This document shows positions 3,284-39,212 of a stretch of 44,852 bases of DNA, one piece after another (the stretch's first letter is position 1; the number at the start of each line of letters is the position of its first letter). A model generated the notes under the pieces. That model saw only the letters and a program-made list of their open reading frames with translations, had not been told where the DNA came from and ran no database searches. The stretch is from a phage. A program made the position numbers and the translations under genes. The stretch lies in sequence record PZ239914.1. One strand, given 5' to 3'.

Positions 3284-4900
3284 CTACTCCCCGGACTCAG
3301 GCATCTCAACTCGCATATCAATCCATCGCCCCGCCGGTATATCTACGGGGTCCATATCCGCCACGCCTTCCACGATGTTTCTTGCAAATTCCGGAACTCC
3401 TGTGTGTTCCCGGTGGAACGTTTTAACAATTATGTCCCCGGTATCCAGAACCTTAAAGTCCACCCACAACAACGGCAACCCGTTGTTGTTACTCGGAATT
3501 GTAAAACCACCATCAACCCCTCCCCAGGCCGGATCCGAGTTAAACCCTAACACTCCGGATACCTTATACACGCCCGTATCGATCCGCTCGCTCTTCACAC
3601 CTTCTGCCTCCTTGTTAAGCTCCGCGGTTCCGTCGCCACGCAACTTAACGATAGGAGACGCGGGCTTAAGGTTGCCGTTAGTGTCAATGGTGGTGTTGGC
3701 GACTGAGTAGAATTTTCCCGCAGGGCCGACAAGGGTGCCGTTGTTGTACATTACCCATATCCTTCCATATGTCGCATGGTCGACAGCCCCGAATACGAAC
3801 CCGGATGTATCGGGGTTTAAATCCGGACTTGCGAGCGCCCCCCATGAAAAATCAATGGTCCAGTTTGTTGTGGAGGCGCTAACCTGGCTATGTTTCGCCA
3901 CGGAGTCCGGGGCCAATGACACTACCGACTTATACCCGAAATCCGCCACGCCCACGTTAGTTCCGGCGGATAATCGTGTAGTGTATTTATTTTGGGTGCT
4001 CCCAACCTCGACTAGGTCGCCGGCCCCGACTCCAACGTTACGCGTTGCCGCTGAGCCAAGCCCCATATTCGTACGGGCTGCGGCCTTGTTGGCAACGTCT
4101 GCCAGGTTCTGCGACGTCTTCATGAATTGCGCAGGGTTGATCGAGTTTTTGAATCCTTCGGCTTCGTCGCGGTATCCCAACGCGGCATCACGGGCGGTTT
4201 GCGCGTCTGTCTTCGCCGCGTTGGATTCGTCGCGAATAACGCCGGTATCCGTCTTAATCTGGTTGGTCTGGTCCTTGATGGCCTGCGTATCAGATTTAAG
4301 CTGATCGGTTTGCGTCTTGATTGTATTGGTGGCGTCGTGGATCGCCTGCGTATCAGCCTTAATCTGGTTGGTGGCGTCGCGAATACCAGCCGTCTCGGTC
4401 TTGAAGCCTTCTGCCTCATTGCGAAATCCTTGCGCAGCTGCTTCCGATGCGGCGGCTTGCTGTTGCAGGTTGCGCATCTCAACAGGGTCGATCTGCTTCA
4501 TTAGCTGCGACAGATAGCCCCATGACATGCCCTGCATAACCAGCCCGTTAGGTAACGTCACTGTGACTTCTTCAGCGTCGCCGAAGATTGCACGCCAGTT
4601 GTTTTCATCCGCGATCATCAAGCGTAATGCCTTCTGTGCCTGGACGGTTACGCCCATCGTTGCCAGCGACATGGTATCGCGCTTAACGCCATCCCACGCG
4701 AGGCCGGTTGCCGTTGGGCCGTCGAACGGCAGAACCAGAGTAAGCGACGTGTCGCTTTCAATGGACGCGATTGCCACGGTGTAGGGGACTTGTCCTACAA
4801 CCAGCGTTAAGAAGTCGCCAGCGTTAAACGCGGTAAACGTCGTGCCAACCCCTACAACCGCCTTGCTGTTGTTCGTTACGGATAGAGTACCCGCTGCCAT
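3284..4900 (-). CDS. side tail fiber protein with coiled-coil repeat region
   Basis: 538 aa from the ATG at 4900 (GAGGA RBS); repeated D-x-T-N-x-I-K-x-D-T-Q-A-I units; Gly/Thr-rich C-terminal region; adjacent to the J homologue. Confidence 0.7.
   Translation of the reverse strand: MAAGTLSVTNNSKAVVGVGTTFTAFNAGDFLTLVVGQVPYTVAIASIESDTSLTLVLPFDGPTATGLAWDGVKRDTMSLATMGVTVQAQKALRLMIADENNWRAIFGDAEEVTVTLPNGLVMQGMSWGYLSQLMKQIDPVEMRNLQQQAAASEAAAQGFRNEAEGFKTETAGIRDATNQIKADTQAIHDATNTIKTQTDQLKSDTQAIKDQTNQIKTDTGVIRDESNAAKTDAQTARDAALGYRDEAEGFKNSINPAQFMKTSQNLADVANKAAARTNMGLGSAATRNVGVGAGDLVEVGSTQNKYTTRLSAGTNVGVADFGYKSVVSLAPDSVAKHSQVSASTTNWTIDFSWGALASPDLNPDTSGFVFGAVDHATYGRIWVMYNNGTLVGPAGKFYSVANTTIDTNGNLKPASPIVKLRGDGTAELNKEAEGVKSERIDTGVYKVSGVLGFNSDPAWGGVDGGFTIPSNNNGLPLLWVDFKVLDTGDIIVKTFHREHTGVPEFARNIVEGVADMDPVDIPAGRWIDMRVEMPESGE
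4150..4400 (-). repeat. in-frame degenerate tandem repeats inside the tail fiber gene
   Basis: Repeated ctgcgtatcag...ttaa..ctg.t.ggt DNA units encoding IRDATNQIKADTQAIHDATNTIKTQTDQLKSDTQAIKDQTNQIKTDTGVI; approximate boundaries. Confidence 0.5.
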
Positions 4901-4921
4901 AGCTAAATCCTCATAAATTGG

Positions 4922-4950
4922 TTGCATTCTTGATCGAGCGGTGTAATACT
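4922..4950 (+). promoter_or_regulatory. candidate sigma70-type promoter (TTGCAT-17-extended -10 TGtAATACT) for the lipoprotein gene
   Basis: ATTGGTTGCA at 4917-4926 overlaps the -35; an 80-bp divergent region separates the tail fiber start (4900) from the lipoprotein start (4981). Confidence 0.4.
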
Positions 4951-4980
4951 GAAACTCGACCAAATATAGGAGATGATACC

Positions 4981-5202
4981 ATGAAAACTTTAATTATGAT
5001 TTGTGCGGTTCTGTTGGCTGGTTGTGCTGTAGAACGCAACAACGGCGATTGCATTACGGTTGCCTACGGTAGCTGCATGTTGCGCTACGTCGACGGGAAG
5101 AAAGTGCCAGCCGGAGATGTGGATATGCGCTTCACTGGTCTGTCTGCCGATAGTGACGGCAACTTCTCGGGTACGGTATCAGTTAAATCGCGGGAGTGGT
5201 AA
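4981..5202 (+). CDS. small lipoprotein (73 aa), candidate superinfection-exclusion factor
   Basis: MKTLIMICAVLLAGC signal peptide with lipobox L-A-G-C; GGAGA RBS; own promoter; opposite strand to the flanking tail genes. Confidence 0.6.
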   Translation: MKTLIMICAVLLAGCAVERNNGDCITVAYGSCMLRYVDGKKVPAGDVDMRFTGLSADSDGNFSGTVSVKSREW

Positions 5203-5204
5203 TA

Positions 5205-6170
5205 ATGGGCGCTGGAGTACTTATCGACTACAACGACGGGCGACCGGTTATGGAGATAACCGCCGGGCTACGCGCGCCGTCATTCTGTACATCATTCTAT
5301 CAGCGCTGCCAGTCTGATAAGACGCTAACTATTAACACTCCGCTAACGCCGGGGTCGGATCTGGTCGTCGTGCTCACAAGTCCCGTTGAAGTGATGGAAG
5401 TCTTCGACCAGACACTGGTCTTGCCAGATCCGTTTTACATAACGTCAATACAGCGTAACGGGGATAGCGGAATAACCTTGCGCGGTGAGGACGCGTTTAA
5501 CGCATATAGCGGGCTTCCATCATGGGGCGGGGTGATTATGGAAGTGCTGCCGGTGGGGTCGCGCAATGCGGGCTTACTGGTGGCGAACTCGACTGACTTT
5601 ACCGCGATATCGAACGTATCCCGGCTTATGACCTGCCGATATGCGCAGCGCGTGTGGGTGAACGGAAGTATGCCATTACCGGTAAGCGGTGTCCCGTTCG
5701 CGCGCTGGGACGACGGAAACGTGTCTGTCGGCTTCGATGGCGGAAGTATTATCGTCCGTAATGCATCCTATGGCGGGATTGACGACGTAGGCGCGGCTGT
5801 TGAAATGGACTTGGTTATATTCAACAATACGCCGCCCACCCCTGGAAACGGCATCACCATGACAAACAACCAGGGGCAGGTCACGTTCTCTACCGTGAAT
5901 AAGCCGTTTGTTATCAATTCCGTTATTAATATCAGCACTGGTGGTAAGAATATCGGTAACAGCCTCGTACAGCTTTCATATACCGGCGCGCTTATTGAGA
6001 ACAACAGCGGATACAACCACGTGAGAATGAATGGGATACGCATGGCAGGCAACGTGGTTAGCGCGGCACGAAATCGCGTGATTGGTAACTACTCACGGCA
6101 GCAATTCCAGATGCCTAACCGCAACATAACCGTACCCACACCGTTACTCGTCATCCCTAACATGTATTAA
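5205..6170 (+). CDS. hypothetical protein (321 aa) co-transcribed with the lipoprotein
   Basis: ATG 3 nt after the lipoprotein stop; Gly/Asn/Thr-rich; no recognised motif. Confidence 0.5.
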   Translation: MGAGVLIDYNDGRPVMEITAGLRAPSFCTSFYQRCQSDKTLTINTPLTPGSDLVVVLTSPVEVMEVFDQTLVLPDPFYITSIQRNGDSGITLRGEDAFNAYSGLPSWGGVIMEVLPVGSRNAGLLVANSTDFTAISNVSRLMTCRYAQRVWVNGSMPLPVSGVPFARWDDGNVSVGFDGGSIIVRNASYGGIDDVGAAVEMDLVIFNNTPPTPGNGITMTNNQGQVTFSTVNKPFVINSVINISTGGKNIGNSLVQLSYTGALIENNSGYNHVRMNGIRMAGNVVSAARNRVIGNYSRQQFQMPNRNITVPTPLLVIPNMY

Positions 6171-6191
6171 AAAAGGGGCCATATGGCCCCT
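6168..6191 (-). terminator. intrinsic terminator after the J gene
   Basis: On the minus strand GGGGCC-atat-GGCCCC hairpin followed by U6. Confidence 0.6.
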
Positions 6192-6197
6192 TCGCAT

Positions 6198-9100
6198 TTA
6201 CCACGTCCCGACTTTCACCCTGCCCCCGCCAGGTAATGGCACGTTAACGCCCGTTGAGTCGATCGTAACGGACCCGCCGGAGAATCCGAAGTTACCCGTG
6301 GTCGCGAACAGGTTGCCGCGTACCGTTACGTTGTTGAACTCCGCCCCGCCATCCTTCGCGATACGCCAGCCGCTGCTACCCGGATTCCAGTTATTCGATT
6401 GCAGCGTGTCCGTGATCTGTGCGAAGTTGATTGACGCGTTCTTGATACGTGCCGTGTCGATGTACACCTGCCCGCCGTCGACGATAAACGCGGACGAAAG
6501 CGACCCATTCGACGGGTGCATGATGTAGAACTGGTCCGCCTTGAACGCGATGCGTGATTTAACCGCGCCACCTTCCGCCACGACCGAAAGCTGCATACCG
6601 GCATCGTAGTAAGTCCCGTTATACGTCACGCCAGCTTTAAGGCTATATGTAGCGCTACCGCCAACATGGTTAAACGAGGACGTCATCTTCTGCTCGATAG
6701 CTGCGGACTGCTGCCCGAACTGCGCCGCGACCTGGGTCTTATACTCCGCCAGTGCGCCCGCTACGTCTGCCGTTGCCGTTTGTACCTGCTGGATGGCAGC
6801 TTCCTGTTCCCCGAACTTAGCGGCAACAGTTTGTTGGTACTGGGCGAACGCTTGTTCGTGCGTGCTTTGCGCGGTCTGCAACATGTGGATTGACGCTTCC
6901 GCATCGTCAAGGCGCGTGCCGATCAACGTCTCAAGTTGCGCGACCGCCTTGTGGGCGTCCGTAGCCACGTTATACGCCACCGTGATTTCCGCATAAATCC
7001 CTTTATACTCGTCGCGGGCATTGAATAGCTGCTGGGCGTCGGTGAGCATAGACTCATAGATACCTTGCGGGATCGTGTCGATTGCTTCCTGGAAGTGTTT
7101 ACCATCCTCGGAAGTCAAGAACTCGTCGTCCAACCCCTTCATGTACTCGTCAACTTTGTCACTCACCTGGCCTTCAAACGGGGCGGACCAGTCCGACAGG
7201 TTGCCGATTTTATCTGCTACACGGGCGCGCAACTGCTGGTAGATCCCGAACTCCAGCGACGTTTGCGCATAGTCAGACCCCGGATATGGGACGTTGGTCA
7301 AGAACTTCCATTCCATTTCGCCCCGCTTGCGAACTTCAAGCTCGGTGTAAGAGATATCCGTCGCGGCGTTGTTGTGGTTCCACTTCCACAAAATTTGGTG
7401 GAGGCCCGAAATCGCGTTGGTGATGATAGGCGCGTTAAGCCCTCCGAGACGACCTTCCACCGGCGTGATGGCAGACGACACCCACGGGGATGAAATCTCG
7501 CCCATACCGATCGCGCGGACGCGGGCCTGGTAGTTACCAGAAAACACATTTGGGATGTGAGCGCCGTTCGAAGCCGTGCGGGGGATGTTTACCCAGTCGT
7601 TTCCCCACTGGATCGCCATATTCTGCAAGCTGGTACGTCGCCACTGGATTTCATAGACAACGGCATCCTTCACCGGCGGGAATACAATATCCACGTTGGT
7701 GATTAGCTGGCCTTGCGATGAAATCTGCGACGGGGTGATGGTCACGGACTCCGGCCCCTTCATTACTCCGTCAGGCACTTGCGTAAAGATGCCTGGGTCA
7801 AGGCGAGCGCCATTATCGACGGCATCATATTTGCTATCGTTGTACTCGATCCCGCGCACTGAAAAAGTGCTGGTAGAGTCGTCATATTCCAGGTCGGTGA
7901 TGCGGAACTTCTGCAACTGGATATCGTCACCATCAACGCAAAACGGCTGATCAGGAATCGGGTCTGCGTCCAGTGCGGTTTTTAGCGTAACCTTGTTGCC
8001 GTTGACGCTGGCGATCTCGCGAGTCTCCACATTACCGCTATCGGTGCGTACCAGGAATTTATCACCGGGGCGGAACGTGATTTCGCTGTCTGTGTTCAGC
8101 ACAGTCCGCGTGCCTGGATCTGACAACAGGCGACCGCCGCGGGTCTCGAAGCCGCCAGAAATGTTTGTATCGGCGATCGCGACTACGCTACCAGGAATAA
8201 AGAATAGTCCTTCCATGCCAACCTTAAAGCTAACTTGCTGGTCAAGCTGGTTGGAGATTAGCGCCCAGTGCCCGCGGCGTTGCGCTTCCGATTCACGAGT
8301 ACAGCCGATCGCCGTAATATCAAGGCGGTTGATTTTATGGCGGCGCACCAGTTCGACACGCTGGCCCGTTGCGATGGCGTCTTCGTAGTGGTTTTTCGGA
8401 TTGCCGTATGCTACCGCGAATGTGGAATAGCGAGTTTTCTGGCTGCCAGATGCGTAGTCGAATCGACCATCAATAACCGAGGCGTTGGTGATAGTGTGCG
8501 ATACCGCTGCGACCGGCTGGTCGCTTACGATATTCAACATCTGGTTGCCCCACCAGGTCATACCGGCAAAGATGGCGGCTAAGTCCTTAAGAACGGTCCA
8601 GGCGTCGGTCTGCGACTGGATGTACATATCATTCTTAAAGCGGATTTCTTGCCCGCCGTTGCCGTCACTGACCATTTGGTCGCAGCGCTGCGCAATCTGG
8701 TATAGCGCGTACCGATTCAGCATTTGCGGCTTGATCCTACGACCGAGGCCGAAGCGCTCAGTAATACAAATATCGTACCAGTGCCACGCAGGGTTATCCG
8801 TCCATGCGCGTTTGAACGTGCCATCCCAGTCGCCAGAATAGGTATGATTGATCGGGTCGTAGTTGTTCGGGACCAGCACTTTGCGGCCTTTGCACTTAAT
8901 GGATACGCGCGGGATGTTCTGGAACGCTTTGGCGTCGAACTCCACAAACAACAGCGCGGTTAGCGGGTAACGCAGACGGGCGTCGATAATCTCAGTGATT
9001 GATTGTACCCGGATATCATTAACCACTTTCGCCGATGTAGAATCTGCCGTTGTGCGGTGAACTTCCACGCGCCAGCCGGTGTTCACGTTCGGTGGTAATT

Positions 9101-9644
9101 CGATGCGGTGGTCGCGCTCATACAGTGACATTGTTTTACCAACGGCAGCGAAGTTGAACTCGCGCGGGTCGGCGTTATCGGTGTACACAACGATTTTATA
9201 GTCGATGCGTCCGCCCACCAGGTCTCCATTATCTTCGTTGGTGTACAAAGCTGGAATGCCGATTCGAATGCGCACGGCGTCAAGACTGGTGTCATTAATC
9301 TGGCGCACCCACGGCGTGCCGTTTTCCAGTTTTACGCCTACGGACTGCTCGCTTTCTACCGCTGAAAATCCGTGGATCACGTCCTGGTGCTGTGTGCCCG
9401 GTCGGAACTCCACACGCGCGCCGGGGAAGTTTTCCGACAAGTCGGCGTTCTGGATCGGCGTGCCGTCCAGGTATACCCGCTGCCGCAATTCGCTGGCGCT
9501 GGTAATACTTTCGAATTCCCCTTCACCCAGTGCAAGCAAGATGCGTATTTTAGCCAGGGAGTGCAGGCTGTCCGGCGTTTCCTGCGGGGTGTGCTGTTTT
9601 CCGCCGCCGCCTTTATGCCCTGTGACGTCGTAGATAATCGTCAT
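6198..9644 (-). CDS. tail tip / host specificity protein (lambda J-like)
   Basis: 1148 aa; Gly-rich N-terminus (HKGGGGKQHTPQE) and the YSGDWDGTFK block (as recalled from lambda J); position after an I-like gene. Confidence 0.9.
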   Translation of the reverse strand: MTIIYDVTGHKGGGGKQHTPQETPDSLHSLAKIRILLALGEGEFESITSASELRQRVYLDGTPIQNADLSENFPGARVEFRPGTQHQDVIHGFSAVESEQSVGVKLENGTPWVRQINDTSLDAVRIRIGIPALYTNEDNGDLVGGRIDYKIVVYTDNADPREFNFAAVGKTMSLYERDHRIELPPNVNTGWRVEVHRTTADSTSAKVVNDIRVQSITEIIDARLRYPLTALLFVEFDAKAFQNIPRVSIKCKGRKVLVPNNYDPINHTYSGDWDGTFKRAWTDNPAWHWYDICITERFGLGRRIKPQMLNRYALYQIAQRCDQMVSDGNGGQEIRFKNDMYIQSQTDAWTVLKDLAAIFAGMTWWGNQMLNIVSDQPVAAVSHTITNASVIDGRFDYASGSQKTRYSTFAVAYGNPKNHYEDAIATGQRVELVRRHKINRLDITAIGCTRESEAQRRGHWALISNQLDQQVSFKVGMEGLFFIPGSVVAIADTNISGGFETRGGRLLSDPGTRTVLNTDSEITFRPGDKFLVRTDSGNVETREIASVNGNKVTLKTALDADPIPDQPFCVDGDDIQLQKFRITDLEYDDSTSTFSVRGIEYNDSKYDAVDNGARLDPGIFTQVPDGVMKGPESVTITPSQISSQGQLITNVDIVFPPVKDAVVYEIQWRRTSLQNMAIQWGNDWVNIPRTASNGAHIPNVFSGNYQARVRAIGMGEISSPWVSSAITPVEGRLGGLNAPIITNAISGLHQILWKWNHNNAATDISYTELEVRKRGEMEWKFLTNVPYPGSDYAQTSLEFGIYQQLRARVADKIGNLSDWSAPFEGQVSDKVDEYMKGLDDEFLTSEDGKHFQEAIDTIPQGIYESMLTDAQQLFNARDEYKGIYAEITVAYNVATDAHKAVAQLETLIGTRLDDAEASIHMLQTAQSTHEQAFAQYQQTVAAKFGEQEAAIQQVQTATADVAGALAEYKTQVAAQFGQQSAAIEQKMTSSFNHVGGSATYSLKAGVTYNGTYYDAGMQLSVVAEGGAVKSRIAFKADQFYIMHPSNGSLSSAFIVDGGQVYIDTARIKNASINFAQITDTLQSNNWNPGSSGWRIAKDGGAEFNNVTVRGNLFATTGNFGFSGGSVTIDSTGVNVPLPGGGRVKVGTW

Positions 9645-15117: not shown

Positions 15118-15291
15118 TTATGCAGTCTCAGACGAGGGGGGCCGTTGACCCCCGTCTAGTCTGAAAGACTGGGCTTTGTCCCGCTTGTCCCGATCGGCTG
15201 AAAACCGCGGCAGCACTGGCGGGGACGTGGTGCTGTCCCGCTTTGTCCCGCTCCTTGTTTGTCCCGCTTTCTGTCCCGCTCAGTTTATGCA
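15118..15291. repeat. iteron-rich noncoding repeat element, copy A
   Basis: About 174 bp, roughly 85% identical to 32339-32512; starts TTATGCAGTCTCAGACGAGGGGGGCC with nested hairpins, then six direct TGTCCCGCT-type units, ends AGTTTATGCA. Confidence 0.8.
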
Positions 15292-15439
15292 CGAAATACG
15301 AATAGGTATGCACATTTGTGGGGTGGGACAAAACGGGACGTCCCGCTTGTCCCGCTTTTAGATTATGCAATGGTAGTGATTAGATATGCGGTTTTGCAGG
15401 GGCGGGACAAAACGGGACGCCCCGATCAGTCCCGCTTCA
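15292..15439. repeat. additional direct and inverted GTCCCGC/GGGAC iterons extending copy A
   Basis: GGGACAAAACGGGAC at 15325-15339 and 15405-15419 (inverted) plus direct GTCCCGC units at 15340, 15349 and 15430. Confidence 0.7.
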
Positions 15440-16185: not shown

Positions 16186-16911
16186 TCAAGACAACGCCTC
16201 GACCAGATCCTTACGGTAGATAACCATATCAGACTGCATGGTCAGAGTGGACTGCACCGTTTCCACGTTGTTTACTTCAGCGGAAGGAATCTTCTGGAAA
16301 GATACCTTTGCCGGGTAAATACGGATCTCACCTTTGCCGCTTGCTGCCGCTGGGTTAGTGAACTTAATCACAGTGGTTTTCTGTGTGTCGTCCAGGTCTT
16401 CCAGGATTGGGCGGATCGGGTCTTCTTCGTCGTGGGTGAAAGTGTAAGTCTGTACCAACGGGTTTTTCGTGGTGTTCAGACTGATTGCGGTGTTCACCTG
16501 CAACGGCTGGAAGGTAGTCGTCTGCTGGTCGCCACCAGACACGGCAACGTTAGTAATGAAAGGGAAGTCGATAAAGCTCGACACCTTCACCACTTCGCCC
16601 GGAGTGCCTACGCTGAAAGCGCCGGTCGGGTATTTTGTGACGTCTTCGGTGTCGAAGCGCGCCAGCGTAACGTCGTTGGTGTCCACTTTACCCACGATGA
16701 ATGCGCGGTTAAGCGCTCGGACCCACGGGGTTTTAGTGAACATAACCACGTCGCCAACAACCAGGCCATGCGAAGCCGCACAGGTAATTACGCAACCTTG
16801 CGTAAGGTCGGAGATCGACGCGGCGGCGTTGGTAGCTGCCGTAACAGCGATGCCGCTGCCCAGTACGGACCCAATCTGGACGCTGGACCCGTTAGGAAGT
16901 TGATAACCCAT
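16186..16911 (-). CDS. major tail protein (by position)
   Basis: 241 aa, CAGGAG RBS; upstream of G/G-T and followed by a terminator, as expected for a highly expressed tail tube gene. Confidence 0.6.
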   Translation of the reverse strand: MGYQLPNGSSVQIGSVLGSGIAVTAATNAAASISDLTQGCVITCAASHGLVVGDVVMFTKTPWVRALNRAFIVGKVDTNDVTLARFDTEDVTKYPTGAFSVGTPGEVVKVSSFIDFPFITNVAVSGGDQQTTTFQPLQVNTAISLNTTKNPLVQTYTFTHDEEDPIRPILEDLDDTQKTTVIKFTNPAAASGKGEIRIYPAKVSFQKIPSAEVNNVETVQSTLTMQSDMVIYRKDLVEALS

Positions 16912-16972
16912 AATGAACGCTCCTGTTTAGATATACGGTTTAATGATACAGCACGCGCAGAATTGCGCCAAA

Positions 16973-17395
16973 TCAGGCACAACAGGAATAGGGCACTGTA
17001 ACCACGATGCGGGCGCGGTCAACATCCTCAATCACTGAACTGGTGTATGGCGCGTCCTGAAGCTGGAATGCAGCTCCGGTAAGCCTTACGGCCTGCCACT
17101 TGTCTGACGTCGCAATGGCGTCCGCCAGTTCGCTCGCATACTGTGTGCCCGTGCCCGCAGGAAATACCACAGCAACCTGATAGACACCTGCATAGATCCG
17201 GCCCTTCTGCTGGAATCCCACAAACTGGGTCGGGGCCGGAAGCAGATATGGTTCCAGGTAAACACCGCTGCCGTTTGCGTGGTCGCCGCTCACGTTCTCC
17301 CAGTTAACCTTTATCGGGCGCTGGTTAGTGCTCAGGCTAACCGATAGCTCTTCGACAACGCTGTTAAGCGCCTTGCGGATTAGAGTATTGCTCAT
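16973..17395 (-). CDS. tail terminator-like protein (lambda U position)
   Basis: 140 aa; synteny only. Confidence 0.45.
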   Translation of the reverse strand: MSNTLIRKALNSVVEELSVSLSTNQRPIKVNWENVSGDHANGSGVYLEPYLLPAPTQFVGFQQKGRIYAGVYQVAVVFPAGTGTQYASELADAIATSDKWQAVRLTGAAFQLQDAPYTSSVIEDVDRARIVVTVPYSCCA

Positions 17396-17988
17396 TATTT
17401 CACCTTAGAATTGATTTCTGCCGCTACGACGCGAACAATCCCAGCGGGCGCTTGTTTACTCCAGCCATACTCCAGCCGCTGCGCGTACGGCACATTGTTC
17501 GTAAACCAGATCGACCCGTATTCACCGGAATCGTAATGCGCCAGCACTTCACGCCCTGCGGCTAGTGTTGCCGTTCCAGCCTTGTCCACTCGGTCAATAG
17601 CGCCGACAGCCGGGCGGTCGAACGTCACCTGCCAGTTCCCCCGGAAGCGCCCACCGGTGTAATTCTTCGCAGCCCAGCCACGCTGGCGGAACGTGACGTT
17701 GCCGTTTTTAGTTTTAAATGAGATGAGCACACTGGCGTGCTTCTTCTGCCCGCGCTTCAGTTTGCCGCCATTCTTGCGGCGCTGTGCGGCGTTCACCTTG
17801 TTCGCGTGCTGGCGGGCCATCGCATAAGCCTTGTTAATCTTCCACCGGCGAGGGTCGCCCACCGGGGAGACCTCGATCAGGCGTCCGAGTATTTGCATCC
17901 CGTACGCCCGCACCGCCTTGTCGTTGTTCTCCTTCGTCTTATCCACCCACGTAGCAATAGTGGCGGCGAATGAGTAGACTTCAGCCAC
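17395..17988 (-). CDS. tail completion protein (lambda Z position)
   Basis: 197 aa; synteny only. Confidence 0.45.
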   Translation of the reverse strand: MAEVYSFAATIATWVDKTKENNDKAVRAYGMQILGRLIEVSPVGDPRRWKINKAYAMARQHANKVNAAQRRKNGGKLKRGQKKHASVLISFKTKNGNVTFRQRGWAAKNYTGGRFRGNWQVTFDRPAVGAIDRVDKAGTATLAAGREVLAHYDSGEYGSIWFTNNVPYAQRLEYGWSKQAPAGIVRVVAAEINSKVK

Positions 17989-22184: not shown

Positions 22185-22212
22185 AAAAGGGGGCCATTAC
22201 GGCCCCCGAATT
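22185..22212. terminator. bidirectional terminator between the island and the spanin genes
   Basis: GGGGGCC-attac-GGCCCCC hairpin flanked by A-rich and T-rich tracts. Confidence 0.55.
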
Positions 22213-22427
22213 ATTTGCTGCAACTCCAGGACCTGCGCCCTCAGCTTCGCCCCGCATTCCATATTTTTCACGTCAATCATCAAATCCTCGTCGGGGTCTG
22301 CGGACGGGTTATCGAACTTGCACGGCGGTCGCAGTGCCGACTCCGTTAGCGGCATCAACGGCACGTTGCTTGATCCGCACGCGCTCAGCATCAAAACTAC
22401 AATCAGGACGGTTAGGACGCGTAACAT
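22197..22427 (-). CDS. o-spanin (Rz1-like outer membrane lipoprotein)
   Basis: Signal peptide with lipobox L-S-A-C; Pro-rich mature part; overlaps the 3' end of the i-spanin ORF in another frame. Confidence 0.65.
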   Translation of the reverse strand: MLRVLTVLIVVLMLSACGSSNVPLMPLTESALRPPCKFDNPSADPDEDLMIDVKNMECGAKLRAQVLELQQIIRGP

Positions 22428-22638
22428 ATTTTACAACCTCTTTCGTGATAGTCCTGTATTCCACGTCGCGTGCCTGTTCGGCCTGCACAGACCCCTCGAC
22501 GACCTTAGTTTGCTGCCGTTGGGCTTTCGCTTGCGCTTCTTGCGCCGCTCTCGCCTCAACGCCTGCGCGGTAGGAATCACCCTGCCAGAATCCAACCGCC
22601 AGACCTATAACCAGTCCGATCGCCGCGTATTTAATCAC
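22309..22638 (-). CDS. i-spanin (Rz-like)
   Basis: Probable GTG start at 22638 with AGGGGG RBS; N-terminal TM helix KYAAIGLVIGLAVGFW then a charged helical periplasmic domain. Confidence 0.6.
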   Translation of the reverse strand: MIKYAAIGLVIGLAVGFWQGDSYRAGVEARAAQEAQAKAQRQQTKVVEGSVQAEQARDVEYRTITKEVVKYVTRPNRPDCSFDAERVRIKQRAVDAANGVGTATAVQVR

Positions 22639-23734
22639 GCCATAGCCCCCTGTTTTTAAGCTGCGCAATAGTCATTAGTTCGCCCGTATCGGTGAACATC
22701 TTCGGCACTTTCACGCCTCGCATAATCTGGTCTGCGCGCTGCACCCCATATAATTCCTCCAGAATATGGCGCGGCTGGCGCTGCACCCAGGAGAAGAAAT
22801 CAGTCTGCGCGTCGACCTGCTCACTCAGCAATCGGCCCGCGTCAGCCTTCAGTGCCGGACGCTTACCACTGGGCCAATCTTCCATACCTTTGACTTTCCA
22901 CGTCTCCGTCGAACGGCAGCAATAATGCAGCTTGCCCGGACCAGCGCCATATTGTGACCCCGCCACCACTTTTCCGCCGCGCTTCCCTTTTGTATCGGGA
23001 GTAACATCAACCGGATAAAACAGGCGATCGCGTAGCTGGCACATGGGAGAAGTATGCGTGTCCAATGTAGCCAACCATTGGCGACCTTCGAGAATATCGT
23101 CATTAGCTTTTACCATTAATTCGCGGGCGGTTGCCGCATAGTGGTTGACCGCGGACTTAACAACGCTTGAGATTGCTTGCGCACTACGACCGCCTAGCGC
23201 GCGCCTCACGTCCGCAATAATTTCCATAGTCGGCTTGCCCTGAATGAATCCAGCGCGCACCTGATTCCCGATCTGCGTCCGGGTCCACTCCGAAAGTGAA
23301 TCGGGCCACTGCATCATGGTGTTACCCTGGAACGGGTTTTTCATTGCAGTCGCTGCAATCTGCGCGCCGGTCACAACGCCCACTACTTCGACCGCGGGCA
23401 CGGCGACCGCGGGCTGGATCGCCGCCGTTAATGTGTCGGCGAGATAATCAGCCTCGGTGTCGGCGAACTCCTGGAGGCTTTCAGCCAGCACCTTAAACTC
23501 GGTGCGCAGTTCCGTTTTGACGGTCTTGTCGAGTTGCGTTAAAAGTGTGGTAAGTGCCTTGTTGCTCATGGACTTTTTACCATCAAGTAACTCGGTCAAC
23601 TTACCCAGTAAAGCGGGCCGGAACTTCTCCCACATAGCCAGCACCATTCGCGCCTGGTCATTGCTCAGGCGCTGGGTGAAGATGTGACGGCGAATCATTC
23701 GATCCGCCAAATATTGATTAATTGTCTTCGCCAT
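22631..23734 (-). CDS. head morphogenesis / minor capsid protein (Mu F, SPP1 gp7-like position)
   Basis: 367 aa directly downstream of the portal gene. Confidence 0.6.
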   Translation of the reverse strand: MAKTINQYLADRMIRRHIFTQRLSNDQARMVLAMWEKFRPALLGKLTELLDGKKSMSNKALTTLLTQLDKTVKTELRTEFKVLAESLQEFADTEADYLADTLTAAIQPAVAVPAVEVVGVVTGAQIAATAMKNPFQGNTMMQWPDSLSEWTRTQIGNQVRAGFIQGKPTMEIIADVRRALGGRSAQAISSVVKSAVNHYAATARELMVKANDDILEGRQWLATLDTHTSPMCQLRDRLFYPVDVTPDTKGKRGGKVVAGSQYGAGPGKLHYCCRSTETWKVKGMEDWPSGKRPALKADAGRLLSEQVDAQTDFFSWVQRQPRHILEELYGVQRADQIMRGVKVPKMFTDTGELMTIAQLKNRGLWRD

Positions 23735-32338: not shown

Positions 32339-32512
32339 TTATGCAGTCTCAGACGAGGGGGGCCATTGACCCCCGTCTAGTCTGAAAGACTGGTAGTTGT
32401 CCCGCTTGTCCCGCTCCCCTCCAGGCCGCGTCCTCCGGGGCGGGACGGGGGTGCTGTCCCGTTTTGTCCCGCCTCTTGTTTGTCCCGCTTTTTGTCCCGC
32501 TTAGTTTATGCA
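32339..32512. repeat. iteron-rich noncoding repeat element, copy B
   Basis: Same 5' hairpin module and six TGTCCCGCT-type iterons as copy A, with a divergent central spacer; between the primase end and the 31800-32126 gene. Confidence 0.8.
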
Positions 32513-32586
32513 ATAAAACTGCATAACTATTCACTATATTCACACTACACGGCAACCAATACGACCAGATAAAAACACTCAAAATG

Positions 32587-32669
32587 GCAACCAATGCGCG
32601 CAAAATTTAATCTTTTAGCGATATGGGAATTCCCATATCGGCAACCAATACGCGCAAAATTTAATCTTT
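32587..32669. repeat. 30-bp direct repeats flanking a 20-bp perfect palindrome at the primase 3' end
   Basis: GGCAACCAAT(G/A)CGCGCAAAATTTAATCTTT at 32587-32616 and 32640-32669; palindrome GATATGGGAATTCCCATATC at 32620-32639; second repeat contains the primase stop codon. Confidence 0.7.
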
Positions 32670-34925
32670 CAGGTCGTCATCGGTCGCAGAAAGCGTGATG
32701 GGTATATTCGTTTTTATGACGATATTAGACGACCCATAGATGGCCCCGGTGTGCGGGTCTGTATAAAAACCTAACACTCCGCGCTCCACCATATCGTCAA
32801 TGGCCTTCGTCGATGTGCCACCTTTCGCTAGTCCAGCCTGGCGGACGATTGCCGATTTACTGAATCCGGTATGATCCGGGTTATCTTCCATCAGTTTTTC
32901 CAGTGCCGCATAAAGCACTTTCTCTTTTTCGTTGCGCGGGCCTGCGGCGTTCTCATCCTTAACTGCGGCTTTTCCAGCGGACTTCGCCTGCTCAATGGCG
33001 AACGGTGCCAGGGCGACCGGTACGAGGTAAAGAGTCTCGTCGCGTGGCGTGGATGCAATCGGCTTGACGTCCCAGCCGGCAACCACATCGCCGAAGTCCG
33101 GCCCGGTGCTGGTGGACTGGTGTGCCTCGAACGCTTCGGACTTGCGGAGATCCACCTTAACCTTGCACTTGAGTAGTACGAAGCCGCGCGGCGCTTGCTT
33201 GATGCCGTTACGCGCCTTTTCGTGATACAGGTTCAATTGGCCGGGCTGATTGTCGTCCGGTTGCTCCAGGAAGAACGCAGAATCAACAGCACCATGCAGC
33301 GCGCCGGACCCGCGGGGGGTTCTGCTGCCGTTTGCGCCCTTCGCCGGGTGATGGATGACGCCCGCGCTGCCGCCTGTATTTTCCGCAATGGCCTTCAGCG
33401 CTTTGACCACTTCGCCCATATCGCTGGCGTTGTTCTCGTCGAACGGTTTAGCATCGGCGGACCGCAACGCTACAGTCTGGTTGAGTGAGTCGAACGCCAC
33501 CAGGCCAACCGGTTCGCCGTTAGCGGTGCGGTTGATGAAGCTGATAACTTCACGCAATCCTGACTTGCTGGTGATATCCCAGCCGCGTGATTGCAGATCG
33601 ATAATGTGCAGCTTGTCCAGGTCGTGCTCGTATTTAATCTGCAATGCTTCCTTACGCTGGTTGGAGGCTTCGCCGCCTTCCGCGTCGAAATAGAAGTTAT
33701 GGCACTGGACGACCTTCGCACCGCCAAACGGGATACCGGCAGATACGGACGCCATCTGGCCCAGCACATAGAACGATTTACCGATGTTCGACTCACCGGC
33801 AAGATACCAGGTCGATTTGAAGTTGACCAGGCCTTCTATGATCGGGTCGTGCTTACTGAACAGTGCGACCGGTTCGTTGTCCAGGTCGGCATCGGTACAT
33901 ACGCCGTACTCGTCGCCATCTCCGACCGCATCGACGATATGCTCATAGCACGATTCCACCTCCTCGTCGTCCAGTCCAGGGAGGATGGCGGCGATTTGCT
34001 TACGTGACATGTTGTGCGGTTCGACGTTCAGGTGGTCCGGGATCCCTATAAGACGTAGCGCCAGGTGCTGGTGTCTGTTCAGTTCCGAGCAACACTCGTT
34101 GCCGGTGTGCATACACTTGAAACGGATCTCGCCATCCTTAACCATGATAGCCGTCGACCCTTCGCCGCTGTGCAGGTGTTCGTTAGGGCACGGCACTTCA
34201 TAGCCCCGACCGGACGACAGTGGCTCGAATCCTGCCTGGAAGCACCAATCCAGAATGCCGTCAGCCACACCATCATCGCCCTGGGTTAGTTCGCGGCGTA
34301 CTTCCTCTTTTTCCATTCCCAGCTTATCAGCCAGGCGAAGCAGACGACGGACACGGGCGCGCTTTCCGTAATGGCATTTAATAACAGACTGCTGGTGTGG
34401 CAGGTACATTAGGCGGTTAGTGTCTTTCGTGCAATCGTCGAAGTCCACATCTGACAGGCCCAGTTGGTGTAATAGTGCATACTGGACGCGGCCCAGGTCT
34501 TCAGCCGGTACAGGCTTGTCAGTGAGCACCAGGAAACGAGCGCAACGCGTGCCGCCTTTCAGCGGGTGGCGGTCGCCGGTAGTGGTGTGAAATACATGTT
34601 CCAGTCCCGCGTCGATGAAAGCCTTACGGCAGCGGCGCAGGGTGCGGGTGTCGGTGCGGTCAATATCGAAGAACAGGATCGAGCGGTCCACAGCACTGGT
34701 CTTGCGGCGTAAGCCGTCACTGGTATACGCCACGATGCCATCGGCCTTACGCTTGCGTCGCGCATACTCGGCTTTATCTTCCGTTTTGTTGATATGCACC
34801 GAGGAGATTTCTTTCGCATCATTGATAAATTCGAAAAACTCTTCGGTAGTCATCTGGAAGTTTTCCGCCCGGGCTTTTTCGCCTTTTTTAGCGGGTCGTG
34901 TTACAGCGAATTTAATTAAGCTCAT
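32661..34925 (-). CDS. DNA primase / P-loop helicase fusion protein
   Basis: 754 aa; Walker A GESNIGKS; Cys/His-rich zinc-binding-like segment CPNEHLHSGEGSTAIMVKDGEIRFKCMHTGNECC. Confidence 0.75.
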   Translation of the reverse strand: MSLIKFAVTRPAKKGEKARAENFQMTTEEFFEFINDAKEISSVHINKTEDKAEYARRKRKADGIVAYTSDGLRRKTSAVDRSILFFDIDRTDTRTLRRCRKAFIDAGLEHVFHTTTGDRHPLKGGTRCARFLVLTDKPVPAEDLGRVQYALLHQLGLSDVDFDDCTKDTNRLMYLPHQQSVIKCHYGKRARVRRLLRLADKLGMEKEEVRRELTQGDDGVADGILDWCFQAGFEPLSSGRGYEVPCPNEHLHSGEGSTAIMVKDGEIRFKCMHTGNECCSELNRHQHLALRLIGIPDHLNVEPHNMSRKQIAAILPGLDDEEVESCYEHIVDAVGDGDEYGVCTDADLDNEPVALFSKHDPIIEGLVNFKSTWYLAGESNIGKSFYVLGQMASVSAGIPFGGAKVVQCHNFYFDAEGGEASNQRKEALQIKYEHDLDKLHIIDLQSRGWDITSKSGLREVISFINRTANGEPVGLVAFDSLNQTVALRSADAKPFDENNASDMGEVVKALKAIAENTGGSAGVIHHPAKGANGSRTPRGSGALHGAVDSAFFLEQPDDNQPGQLNLYHEKARNGIKQAPRGFVLLKCKVKVDLRKSEAFEAHQSTSTGPDFGDVVAGWDVKPIASTPRDETLYLVPVALAPFAIEQAKSAGKAAVKDENAAGPRNEKEKVLYAALEKLMEDNPDHTGFSKSAIVRQAGLAKGGTSTKAIDDMVERGVLGFYTDPHTGAIYGSSNIVIKTNIPITLSATDDDLKD

Positions 34926-35471: not shown

Positions 35472-35667
35472 TCACTCCGTCGACAGGATGCAGGACGCAA
35501 ACTGGAGAGGGGCAACGCAGGGGCCGGATCGAAGTGTCAGGATTCCCAACCGTGATTATATAACCCGGTCCACTACCCGAACGGGAGAACGCGCAACCGG
35601 GCAATATGTTAAGGCCACCGACGAAGTTAACTGCCGACACCTAAACTTAACCAATCGGAGATATACC

Positions 35668-36183
35668 ATGTTTGAGCAAATCGTAAACCTGATCACTCGC
35701 GGCGTAGTAGCACTGGAAACCATCGCTAAACATTATGAAACCGTTGGCGCTGCCGTTGGTAAGCAGGAAGACAAGAAGCCGTCTAAGGCCAAAAAAGAAG
35801 TTGTCGAAGATGACGACAATGACGCCGAAGACGAAAAACCGGCTAAATCTAAAAAAGCCCCGGCGAAAGGCAAGGCCAAAAAAGAAGTCGTAGAAGATGA
35901 CGACGATGATGCCGAAGACGAAAAACCGGCTAAATCTAAAAAAGCCCCGGCGAAAGGCAAAGGTAAGAAAGATGCCGATCCGCTGGCGGAGATGCGCGAC
36001 GAAATCAAACAATATGCCGCTATTATTGCCGGTGGCGATGACGACGACGCGAACGACGAATTCGACGACCTGCTGGAATCGTTCGAGATCAAATCAATCG
36101 CCAAGCTGGAAGATGACGACGTCGAAGACTTCCACACAGAGTTGAAAGAGATCGTCGAAACCTATTTCGAACTGGAAGATTAA
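35668..36183 (+). CDS. highly acidic tandem-repeat protein (171 aa), candidate DNA mimic
   Basis: ATG with GGAGA RBS; two 29-aa repeats KKEVVEDDD(N/D)DAEDEKPAKSKKAPAKGK; Asp/Glu-rich C-terminus; first gene after the strong promoter. Confidence 0.6.
   Translation: MFEQIVNLITRGVVALETIAKHYETVGAAVGKQEDKKPSKAKKEVVEDDDNDAEDEKPAKSKKAPAKGKAKKEVVEDDDDDAEDEKPAKSKKAPAKGKGKKDADPLAEMRDEIKQYAAIIAGGDDDDANDEFDDLLESFEIKSIAKLEDDDVEDFHTELKEIVETYFELED
35791..35964 (+). repeat. 2 x 87-bp in-frame tandem direct repeat
   Basis: 35791-35877 and 35878-35964 are near-identical. Confidence 0.8.
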
Positions 36184-38426: not shown

Positions 38427-39212
38427 ATGGCTAAAGTCAACCTGAAAAATGTGCGCGTATGCTTCCTGAAAATCTGGGAACGTGATACCCCTAAACAGGA
38501 TGGGCAAAAACCGGCATACCGTGCCGTGATTCTTCTTGATAAAGAAGATCCGCAGGTGGACAAAGTGGAAGCGGCAGCGCGCGCAGTGCTTACCGATAAG
38601 CTGAAATCCGAGAAGAATGCCGATAAGTGGATGGACCGCCACTACGCCCAGGATTCGAAGGAATGCGCAGTCCGCGACGGCGACGAGCGCGACGAAGTGA
38701 CCGAAGAATTCGAAGGCATGTTGTATATCAACGCCAAATCGTTCAAACAGCCTATCATTCAAACGTCACTCGGCGAGAAGCAGACTGAACAAGGTCTGAC
38801 CGTAGAAGGTGACGAGATCGAAGGCCAGGAGATCTACTCAGGTTGTTATTGCAACGTGTCCCTTGATATTTGGGCGTGGAACAACACCAACGGCAAGGGA
38901 CTCGGTGCTGGCTTGCTGGGTTTACGCTTCCGTGATGACGGTGAAGCCTTCGGCGGTGGCGGGTCTTCTTGCTCCGATGAAGACCTGGACAACGACGACG
39001 AAGACGAAGCACCGCGCAAGGCTAAGAAGTCAAAACGTCGTGATGACGATGATGAAGATGACAAGCCGCGCAAGTCCGAGAAATCCAAGCGCCGCGATGA
39101 CGACGACGATGAGGAAGATGAAAAACCTCGCAAACGCCGCAAGTCCCGCGATGACGAAGATGAGGACGAAGACGACGAAGACGAAGCACCACGTAAACGT
39201 CGCCGCCGTTAA
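38427..39212 (+). CDS. phage ssDNA-binding protein-like (DUF2815-like) with alternating acidic/basic C-terminal repeats
   Basis: Start at the ATG with GAGGA RBS; family call from recalled N-terminal similarity and position next to the nuclease; C-terminal DDDEDEAPRKAKKSKRR-type repeats. Confidence 0.55.
   Translation: MAKVNLKNVRVCFLKIWERDTPKQDGQKPAYRAVILLDKEDPQVDKVEAAARAVLTDKLKSEKNADKWMDRHYAQDSKECAVRDGDERDEVTEEFEGMLYINAKSFKQPIIQTSLGEKQTEQGLTVEGDEIEGQEIYSGCYCNVSLDIWAWNNTNGKGLGAGLLGLRFRDDGEAFGGGGSSCSDEDLDNDDEDEAPRKAKKSKRRDDDDEDDKPRKSEKSKRRDDDDDEEDEKPRKRRKSRDDEDEDEDDEDEAPRKRRRR

Follow-up and report, generated by a model that had tools for sequence, protein, structure and literature searches.

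The region of this phage that runs from the lateral tail fibre gene to the J-like tail tip gene is, in our view with little room for doubt, the LptD-type host-recognition cassette of a Dhillonvirus, an arrangement downstream of gpJ that has been named the 'bona fide RBP locus' (Maffei et al., 2021). At its centre lie two adjacent genes, one encoding a small lipoprotein that by homology would block the receptor against further phages, and the other a 321 aa protein predicted to be the terminal receptor-binding protein (RBP). The lipoprotein/RBP cassette is already known from near-identical proteins, through genetics (2006, 2021) and structures (2025). The window, by which we mean the whole stretch of 44,852 nucleotides analysed (sequence record PZ239914.1), is the DNA of a Dhillonvirus coliphage with about 92% nucleotide identity to Oekolampad (Bas18).

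Organization of the locus

The features of the locus, in window coordinates, are as follows.

3284-4900, minus strand: lateral tail fibre gene, 538 aa from ATG 4900, matching PHROG tail fibre families and Pfam Phage_tail_C_2
4901-4980, no strand assigned: divergent intergenic region of 80 bp between the lateral fibre and lipoprotein genes, with a weak candidate sigma70 promoter (plus strand) and a ribosome-binding site (RBS)
4981-5202, plus strand: putative superinfection-exclusion lipoprotein gene, ATG 4981 to TAA 5202, 73 aa
5205-6170, plus strand: gene of the predicted 321 aa RBP, ATG 5205 to TAA 6170
6173-6192, no strand assigned: GC-rich hairpin AAGGGGCC-ATAT-GGCCCCTT separating the RBP gene from the convergent J gene
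6198-9644, minus strand: J-like tail tip gene, 1148 aa, matching Pfam FNIII-A_GpJ, Phage-tail_3 and Phage_Tail_Tip and PHROG 31

Both central genes are on the plus strand and the lateral fibre and J genes on the minus strand, so that the pair is transcribed away from the fibre gene and towards J. For the lateral fibre ORF the start was taken at ATG 4900, the listed TTG start at 4963 representing an upstream extension. The RBS of the lipoprotein gene is AGGAG (4968-4972), 8 nt 5' of ATG 4981, and the RBP gene starts 2 nt past the lipoprotein stop codon and is preceded by GGGAG. Pfam and PHROG matches are strong for both products, and comparison with six relatives gave dN/dS values of 0.08-0.14 for the 321 aa gene and 0.02-0.10 for the lipoprotein gene; both genes are thus real coding sequences under purifying selection.

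The initial annotation had described a 73 aa lipoprotein (lipobox LLAGC) and a 321 aa gene on the strand opposite to the fibre and J genes, and the ORFs are exactly as it gave them. It had also placed the pair between a receptor-binding tail fibre and J; the position is right, but the fibre is not the terminal receptor binder. Primary contact with glycans falls to the lateral fibre, and terminal receptor binding to the 321 aa protein.

The 321 aa protein

The product of the second gene (34.5 kDa) matches Pfam DUF6453 with 394 bits (E 5e-118), and over residues 1-321 it matches chain C of PDB entries 9RPT, 9RPW and 9RQI (E 4e-181), the cryo-EM structures of the Oekolampad protein RBP_Oeko on LptDE. 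The two proteins align without gaps at 84.4% identity (271/321), and identity to Rtp44 of phage Rtp is 33.6%. Gln299, the single LptD-contact residue compared, is retained; PMC12685063 describes a hydrogen bond between Gln299 of RBP_Oeko and Ser350 of LptD. The identity of the 321 aa protein can be regarded as settled because a structure of an 84%-identical protein has already been solved: judged by its sequence, it is the terminal RBP of the central tail fibre, a structural virion protein situated on the J tip, of the Oekolampad type and specific for LptD, with LptD binding and docking on J both predicted by homology.

These matches bear directly on the role that the 321 aa protein had been given at first, as a partner without recognisable motif that might be a co-factor or a moron, a description that must now be abandoned. 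The fuller form of that proposal, in which the lipoprotein is a Cor/Llp-like blocker of a TonB-dependent receptor such as FhuA and the 321 aa protein a non-virion cofactor or moron, draws on the category of its family in PHROG 1265 ('moron ... membrane protein') and on the position of a small lipoprotein beside tail genes. It is contradicted by the 84% identity to an RBP solved on LptDE, and the protein has neither a transmembrane or hydrophobic segment (maximum 19-residue hydropathy 1.26) nor a signal peptide. We therefore reject the label 'membrane protein', which this ORF would receive from PHROG 1265 and RefSeq, as an annotation artefact attached to a match of a solved soluble RBP. With the lipoprotein evidence set out below, we consider the blocker-and-moron proposal extremely improbable.

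Homologues of exactly the same length as the 321 aa protein occur in three lineages, Dhillonvirus, Queuovirinae (SP8, VogelGryff) and Drexlerviridae (Chapo). The VogelGryff homologue is 61% identical, and VogelGryff is experimentally lptD-dependent; the more distant Rtp44/AugustePiccard type (about 33% identical) depends on LptD as well (PMC8594841). Among the phages of the collection the RBP has no close twin, its best match being 93% identical. Relative to RBP_Oeko the protein differs at 50 of 321 positions, with clusters at residues 237-248 and 284-289, and the first of these patches is hypervariable across the RBP family; its discrimination among LptD variants may thus not be quite the same.

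Such clustering could be taken as the mark of an allele with shifted specificity, whose RBP recognises another outer-membrane protein or particular LptD variants and whose lipoprotein blocks that same target. Substitutions in the C-terminal tip of J co-occur with those in the RBP, and swaps of RBP loci are known to change the receptor (PMC8594841). Against this, the lipoprotein is 96% identical to its Oekolampad counterpart, a dN/dS of about 0.1 gives no hint of strong diversifying selection at the scale of the whole gene, and all BASEL Dhillonviruses carrying this allele are assigned to LptD, among them all the new Dhillonvirus isolates with the Oekolampad-type allele in the second BASEL paper (PMC11990801). 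Since even the distant homologues (VogelGryff and the Rtp44 type) keep LptD, a shift of receptor is very unlikely, and we retain LptD as the predicted target.

The lipoprotein

The first gene of the pair encodes a precursor of 73 aa whose N-terminus, MKTLIMICAVLLAGC... (MKTLIMICAVLLAGCAVERNN...), has a basic start, a hydrophobic core and the lipobox L-A-G-C. A signal peptide II can be read from the sequence, with cleavage between MKTLIMICAVLLAG and C15-A16; the lipobox is thus LLAG followed by C15, and position +2 is Ala, with no Asp at +2. The mature form of 59 aa (6.3 kDa) is predicted to carry its lipid on Cys15 and to reside in the outer membrane.

The lipoprotein scores 76.1 bits in Pfam PF24052 (Phage_lipoprotein, 'Phage lipoprotein family') against a cut-off of 27 (E 2e-21), and Rtp45 and SE_Oeko also score in this family; a further match is to PHROG 4281. 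With Oekolampad gp26 (bas18_0026, SE_Oeko) the lipoprotein shares 95.9% identity, and with Rtp45 (PDB 9RPS chain D, E 1.2e-8) it shares 41%. Its Cys24 and Cys32 align with the disulfide-bonded pair Cys30-Cys38 of Rtp45, with identical 7-residue spacing, and its gene stands immediately upstream of the DUF6453 RBP gene, downstream of and convergent with gpJ.

In the structure of the Rtp45-LptDE-LptM complex, Rtp45, a protein of about 6 kDa, sits on the periplasmic face, flanked by LptE and LptM, and sends up a hairpin that rises in the lumen and shifts EL4, one of the extracellular loops, by as much as 20 Å, so that RBP binding is prevented (PMC12685063). The same paper, citing Wietzorrek 2006, states that Rtp45 binds periplasmic LptDE and that its expression abolishes adsorption. 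Expression of SE_Oeko did not succeed (Dunbar et al.), and AlphaFold models of the lipoprotein and its complexes are described as unreliable (PMC12685063). The exclusion role of the Oekolampad-type lipoprotein rests on its 41% identity to Rtp45 together with synteny, and by homology we regard the product of this gene as a putative receptor-blocking superinfection-exclusion factor of the Rtp45 family.

The original proposal of a Cor/Llp-like receptor-blocking lipoprotein therefore survives in part: an exclusion factor is what the homology to Rtp45 and SE_Oeko and the PF24052 match indicate, but membership of the Cor or Llp families is rejected. A profile comparison gave for Cor a weak match to PHROG phrog_1119 (E 0.0025) confined to residues 1-30, that is, to the signal peptide, and no Cor family appeared among the Pfam, NCBIfam and PADLOC matches. 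For Llp there was no annotated family among the Pfam, PHROG, NCBIfam and PADLOC matches, and the PDB search returned Rtp45 and no Llp chain. An anti-phage defence system was likewise discarded as a candidate, there being no PADLOC matches.

The likeness to the T5 proteins pb5 (oad) and Llp and to Cor of T1 and phi80 is one of outline: a dedicated terminal RBP on the tail tip of a siphophage goes together with a small lipoprotein of the outer membrane, which acts from the periplasmic side to inactivate the receptor that the phage itself uses. The locus differs from them in having no sequence membership in those families and in its target, which is LptDE here and the TonB-dependent transporter FhuA there. 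The mode of exclusion differs as well, Rtp45 acting by steric displacement of EL4 through the lumen as opposed to the long-range allostery of the T5/Cor type (PMC12685063).

The annotation of the Chapo homologue as 'u-spanin' raises a further alternative, in which this small, outer-membrane lipoprotein would be a lysis protein, either an o-spanin or a u-spanin. A u-spanin needs a C-terminal transmembrane domain, and the mature 59 aa protein has no such domain or hydrophobic C-terminus. The homologue Rtp45 has moreover been seen bound to LptDE (PMC12685063), and a spanin role is rejected because a separate, overlapping Rz/Rz1-type pair is present elsewhere in the window (22197-22668, minus strand). 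We find a lysis function hardly credible and keep to superinfection exclusion as the predicted role.

Transcription of the pair

The lipoprotein gene had initially been credited with its own sigma70-like promoter, and this claim was not confirmed. A sigma70 consensus scan upstream of 4981 found no site above background, and the candidate picked by eye on the plus strand (TTGCAT at 4922-4927, a 17 nt spacer and TGtAATACT at 4942-4950) is a poor consensus match, at 3/6 and 4/6 positions. It is nevertheless conserved in Oekolampad and in HK578, though the lipoprotein/RBP allele of HK578 is a different one. The 2 nt gap between the two genes and the lack of a terminator between them suggest that they are co-transcribed.

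Downstream of the pair, the hairpin at 6173-6192 was passed over by a simple terminator scan but was detected by folding, with dG values of -16.3 kcal/mol on the plus strand (z -3.5) and -19.1 kcal/mol on the minus strand (z -4.0). It is followed by a U6 tail on the J (minus-strand) transcript and by a weaker tail on the plus-strand transcript, and the annotation of phage Chapo has a bidirectional terminator at the equivalent position. This hairpin is likely to be a bidirectional intrinsic terminator.

The T5 llp gene is an early gene. Unlike in T5, the exclusion factor here is apparently on one transcript with a structural late protein, so that the lipoprotein may come into play late and shield progeny from debris, instead of serving, like T5 Llp, in early exclusion. 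A broader proposal, that the RBP allele might respond differently to variants of the LptD loops and so overcome lptD mutations known to confer resistance, and that, separately, the lipoprotein is late-acting, is one that we hold to be rather unlikely.

Relatives and probable modular exchange

Across the locus and the first 25 kb the window shows DNA identity of 90-92% to Dhillonvirus phages, including Oekolampad/Bas18, TH11, AV129, Bas83-85, JL1 and EK99P-1, and its 44.85 kb come close to a complete genome of this genus. The gene order with the lipoprotein preceding the RBP, convergent with J, is found in many small siphophages, among them Oekolampad, Rtp (rtp45-rtp44-rtp43), HK578, AV129, WF5505, bov11C2, PEC14, slur06 and Chapo. 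Oekolampad shares with this phage the genus, the order of lateral fibre (minus strand), lipoprotein (plus), RBP (plus) and J (minus), and the lengths of 73 and 321 aa, and differs in its lipobox (LLSGC there, LLAGC here), in the C-terminal half of the lateral fibre and at the 50 substituted RBP positions. Phage Rtp (Drexlerviridae) has the same PF24052 and DUF6453 families, the same order convergent with J, the lipobox, the Cys pair and LptD as the target, but at identities of 41% (lipoprotein) and 34% (RBP) its genes make up a second allele class, which is present also in the type Dhillonvirus HK578.

The HK578 allele is 77-82% identical to Rtp44/45, and yet the intergenic region upstream of it is almost identical to that of the window. 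J is 96% identical to its Oekolampad counterpart, with about one-third of the substitutions falling in the last ~70 residues. The lateral fibre aligns with that of Oekolampad over its N-terminal 281 aa alone (80% identity), and its C-terminal half, within 3284-4060 and ending in a Phage_tail_C_2 tip, is different. The Rtp-type allele in HK578, the J C-terminal substitutions and the N-terminal-only match of the fibre fit modular exchange, in which the lipoprotein/RBP unit would have passed as a whole from one small siphophage to another by horizontal transfer; the J C-terminus and the C-terminal half of the lateral fibre have the look of places where recombination has joined host-range modules. 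The C-terminal stretch of J (6198-6410, residues ~1080-1148) adjoins the divergent RBP gene.

VogelGryff (Seuratvirus, MZ501110.1, 17230-19392) has a homologue of the 321 aa RBP and no annotated lipoprotein gene in the 124 bp gap upstream of it, so an exclusion gene in Queuovirinae would be either absent or located elsewhere. Both families are carried by phiEco32-like podoviruses (Kuravirus/Gordonclarkvirinae; EcoN5, phiEco32, MN05, O18-011, Bas89 and others). The EcoN5 genome (NC_070986.1) encodes a DUF6453 protein (89 bits) at 16525-17544, directly after the tail fibre genes, that is 26% identical to the RBP of the window and matches PDB 9RPT_C with E 8e-11. Its PF24052 lipoprotein (119 bits), with lipobox and Cys pair conserved, is encoded about 48 kb away at 65198-65497, among small early genes. 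These matches predict that phiEco32-like podophages use LptD as terminal receptor and that an early lipoprotein blocks it; no link of Kuravirus to LptD was found in the literature searched.

Proposed mechanism

By analogy with the solved complexes, the RBP on the tip of J would plug deep into the lumen of LptDE, the LPS translocon, from the extracellular side and contact the LptD loops EL3-5 and EL11, leading to irreversible adsorption and DNA injection. The lipoprotein would leave the cytoplasm through Sec, receive its lipid at Cys15 and end up in the inner leaflet of the outer membrane, where it would bind LptDE from the periplasmic side, push its hairpin up the lumen and displace EL4. With EL4 displaced, the RBPs of incoming or released phages could not bind, and blocked LptDE would thus provide superinfection exclusion and also prevent the loss of progeny to cell debris. 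For the window phage this exclusion mechanism is proposed by homology to Rtp45.

Other features of the window

A non-coding element of about 190 nt occurs twice in direct orientation with 82% identity, at 15118-15313 and 32339-32534, with extra motifs at 15320-15424. In each copy a long hairpin rich in GC (GACGAGGGGGGCC..GACCCCCGTC) precedes 6-7 direct repeats of TGTCCCGC, and 13 of the 16 TGTCCCGY sites in the window fall inside the two element places (3.5 sites expected window-wide; none of 100 shuffles reached 16). One element lies upstream of where the tape-measure gene ends, the other upstream of a 754 aa ORF at 32661-34925; a regulator-binding or iteron array is a candidate identity for them.

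The Rz/Rz1-type spanin pair on the minus strand comprises an i-spanin at 22309-22668 and an overlapping o-spanin lipoprotein at 22197-22427 (MLRVLTVLIVVLMLSAC...), with PHROG Rz-like spanin matches of E 1e-26 and 3e-36. It adjoins head-morphogenesis genes and lies outside any obvious lysis cassette. At 35785-35960 an in-frame tandem duplication (87 nt x 2, 95% identical) lies inside the ORF at 35488-36183 and encodes a lysine- and acidic-rich repeat, and similar acidic repeats coding for DEDxDDED are found at 38976-39196. Scans of the window for tRNA genes and Rfam families found none.

Significance

Genes homologous to those described here carry the public labels 'hypothetical protein', 'membrane protein', 'lipoprotein' and 'u-spanin', and the proper labels are 'LptD-specific receptor-binding protein' and 'LptD-blocking superinfection-exclusion lipoprotein'. 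The locus is one more natural variant of a module aimed at an essential, conserved outer-membrane machine, and beyond correct annotation it adds little. Its identification predicts LptD as the terminal receptor of this phage, and is useful for host-range prediction and the design of phage cocktails.
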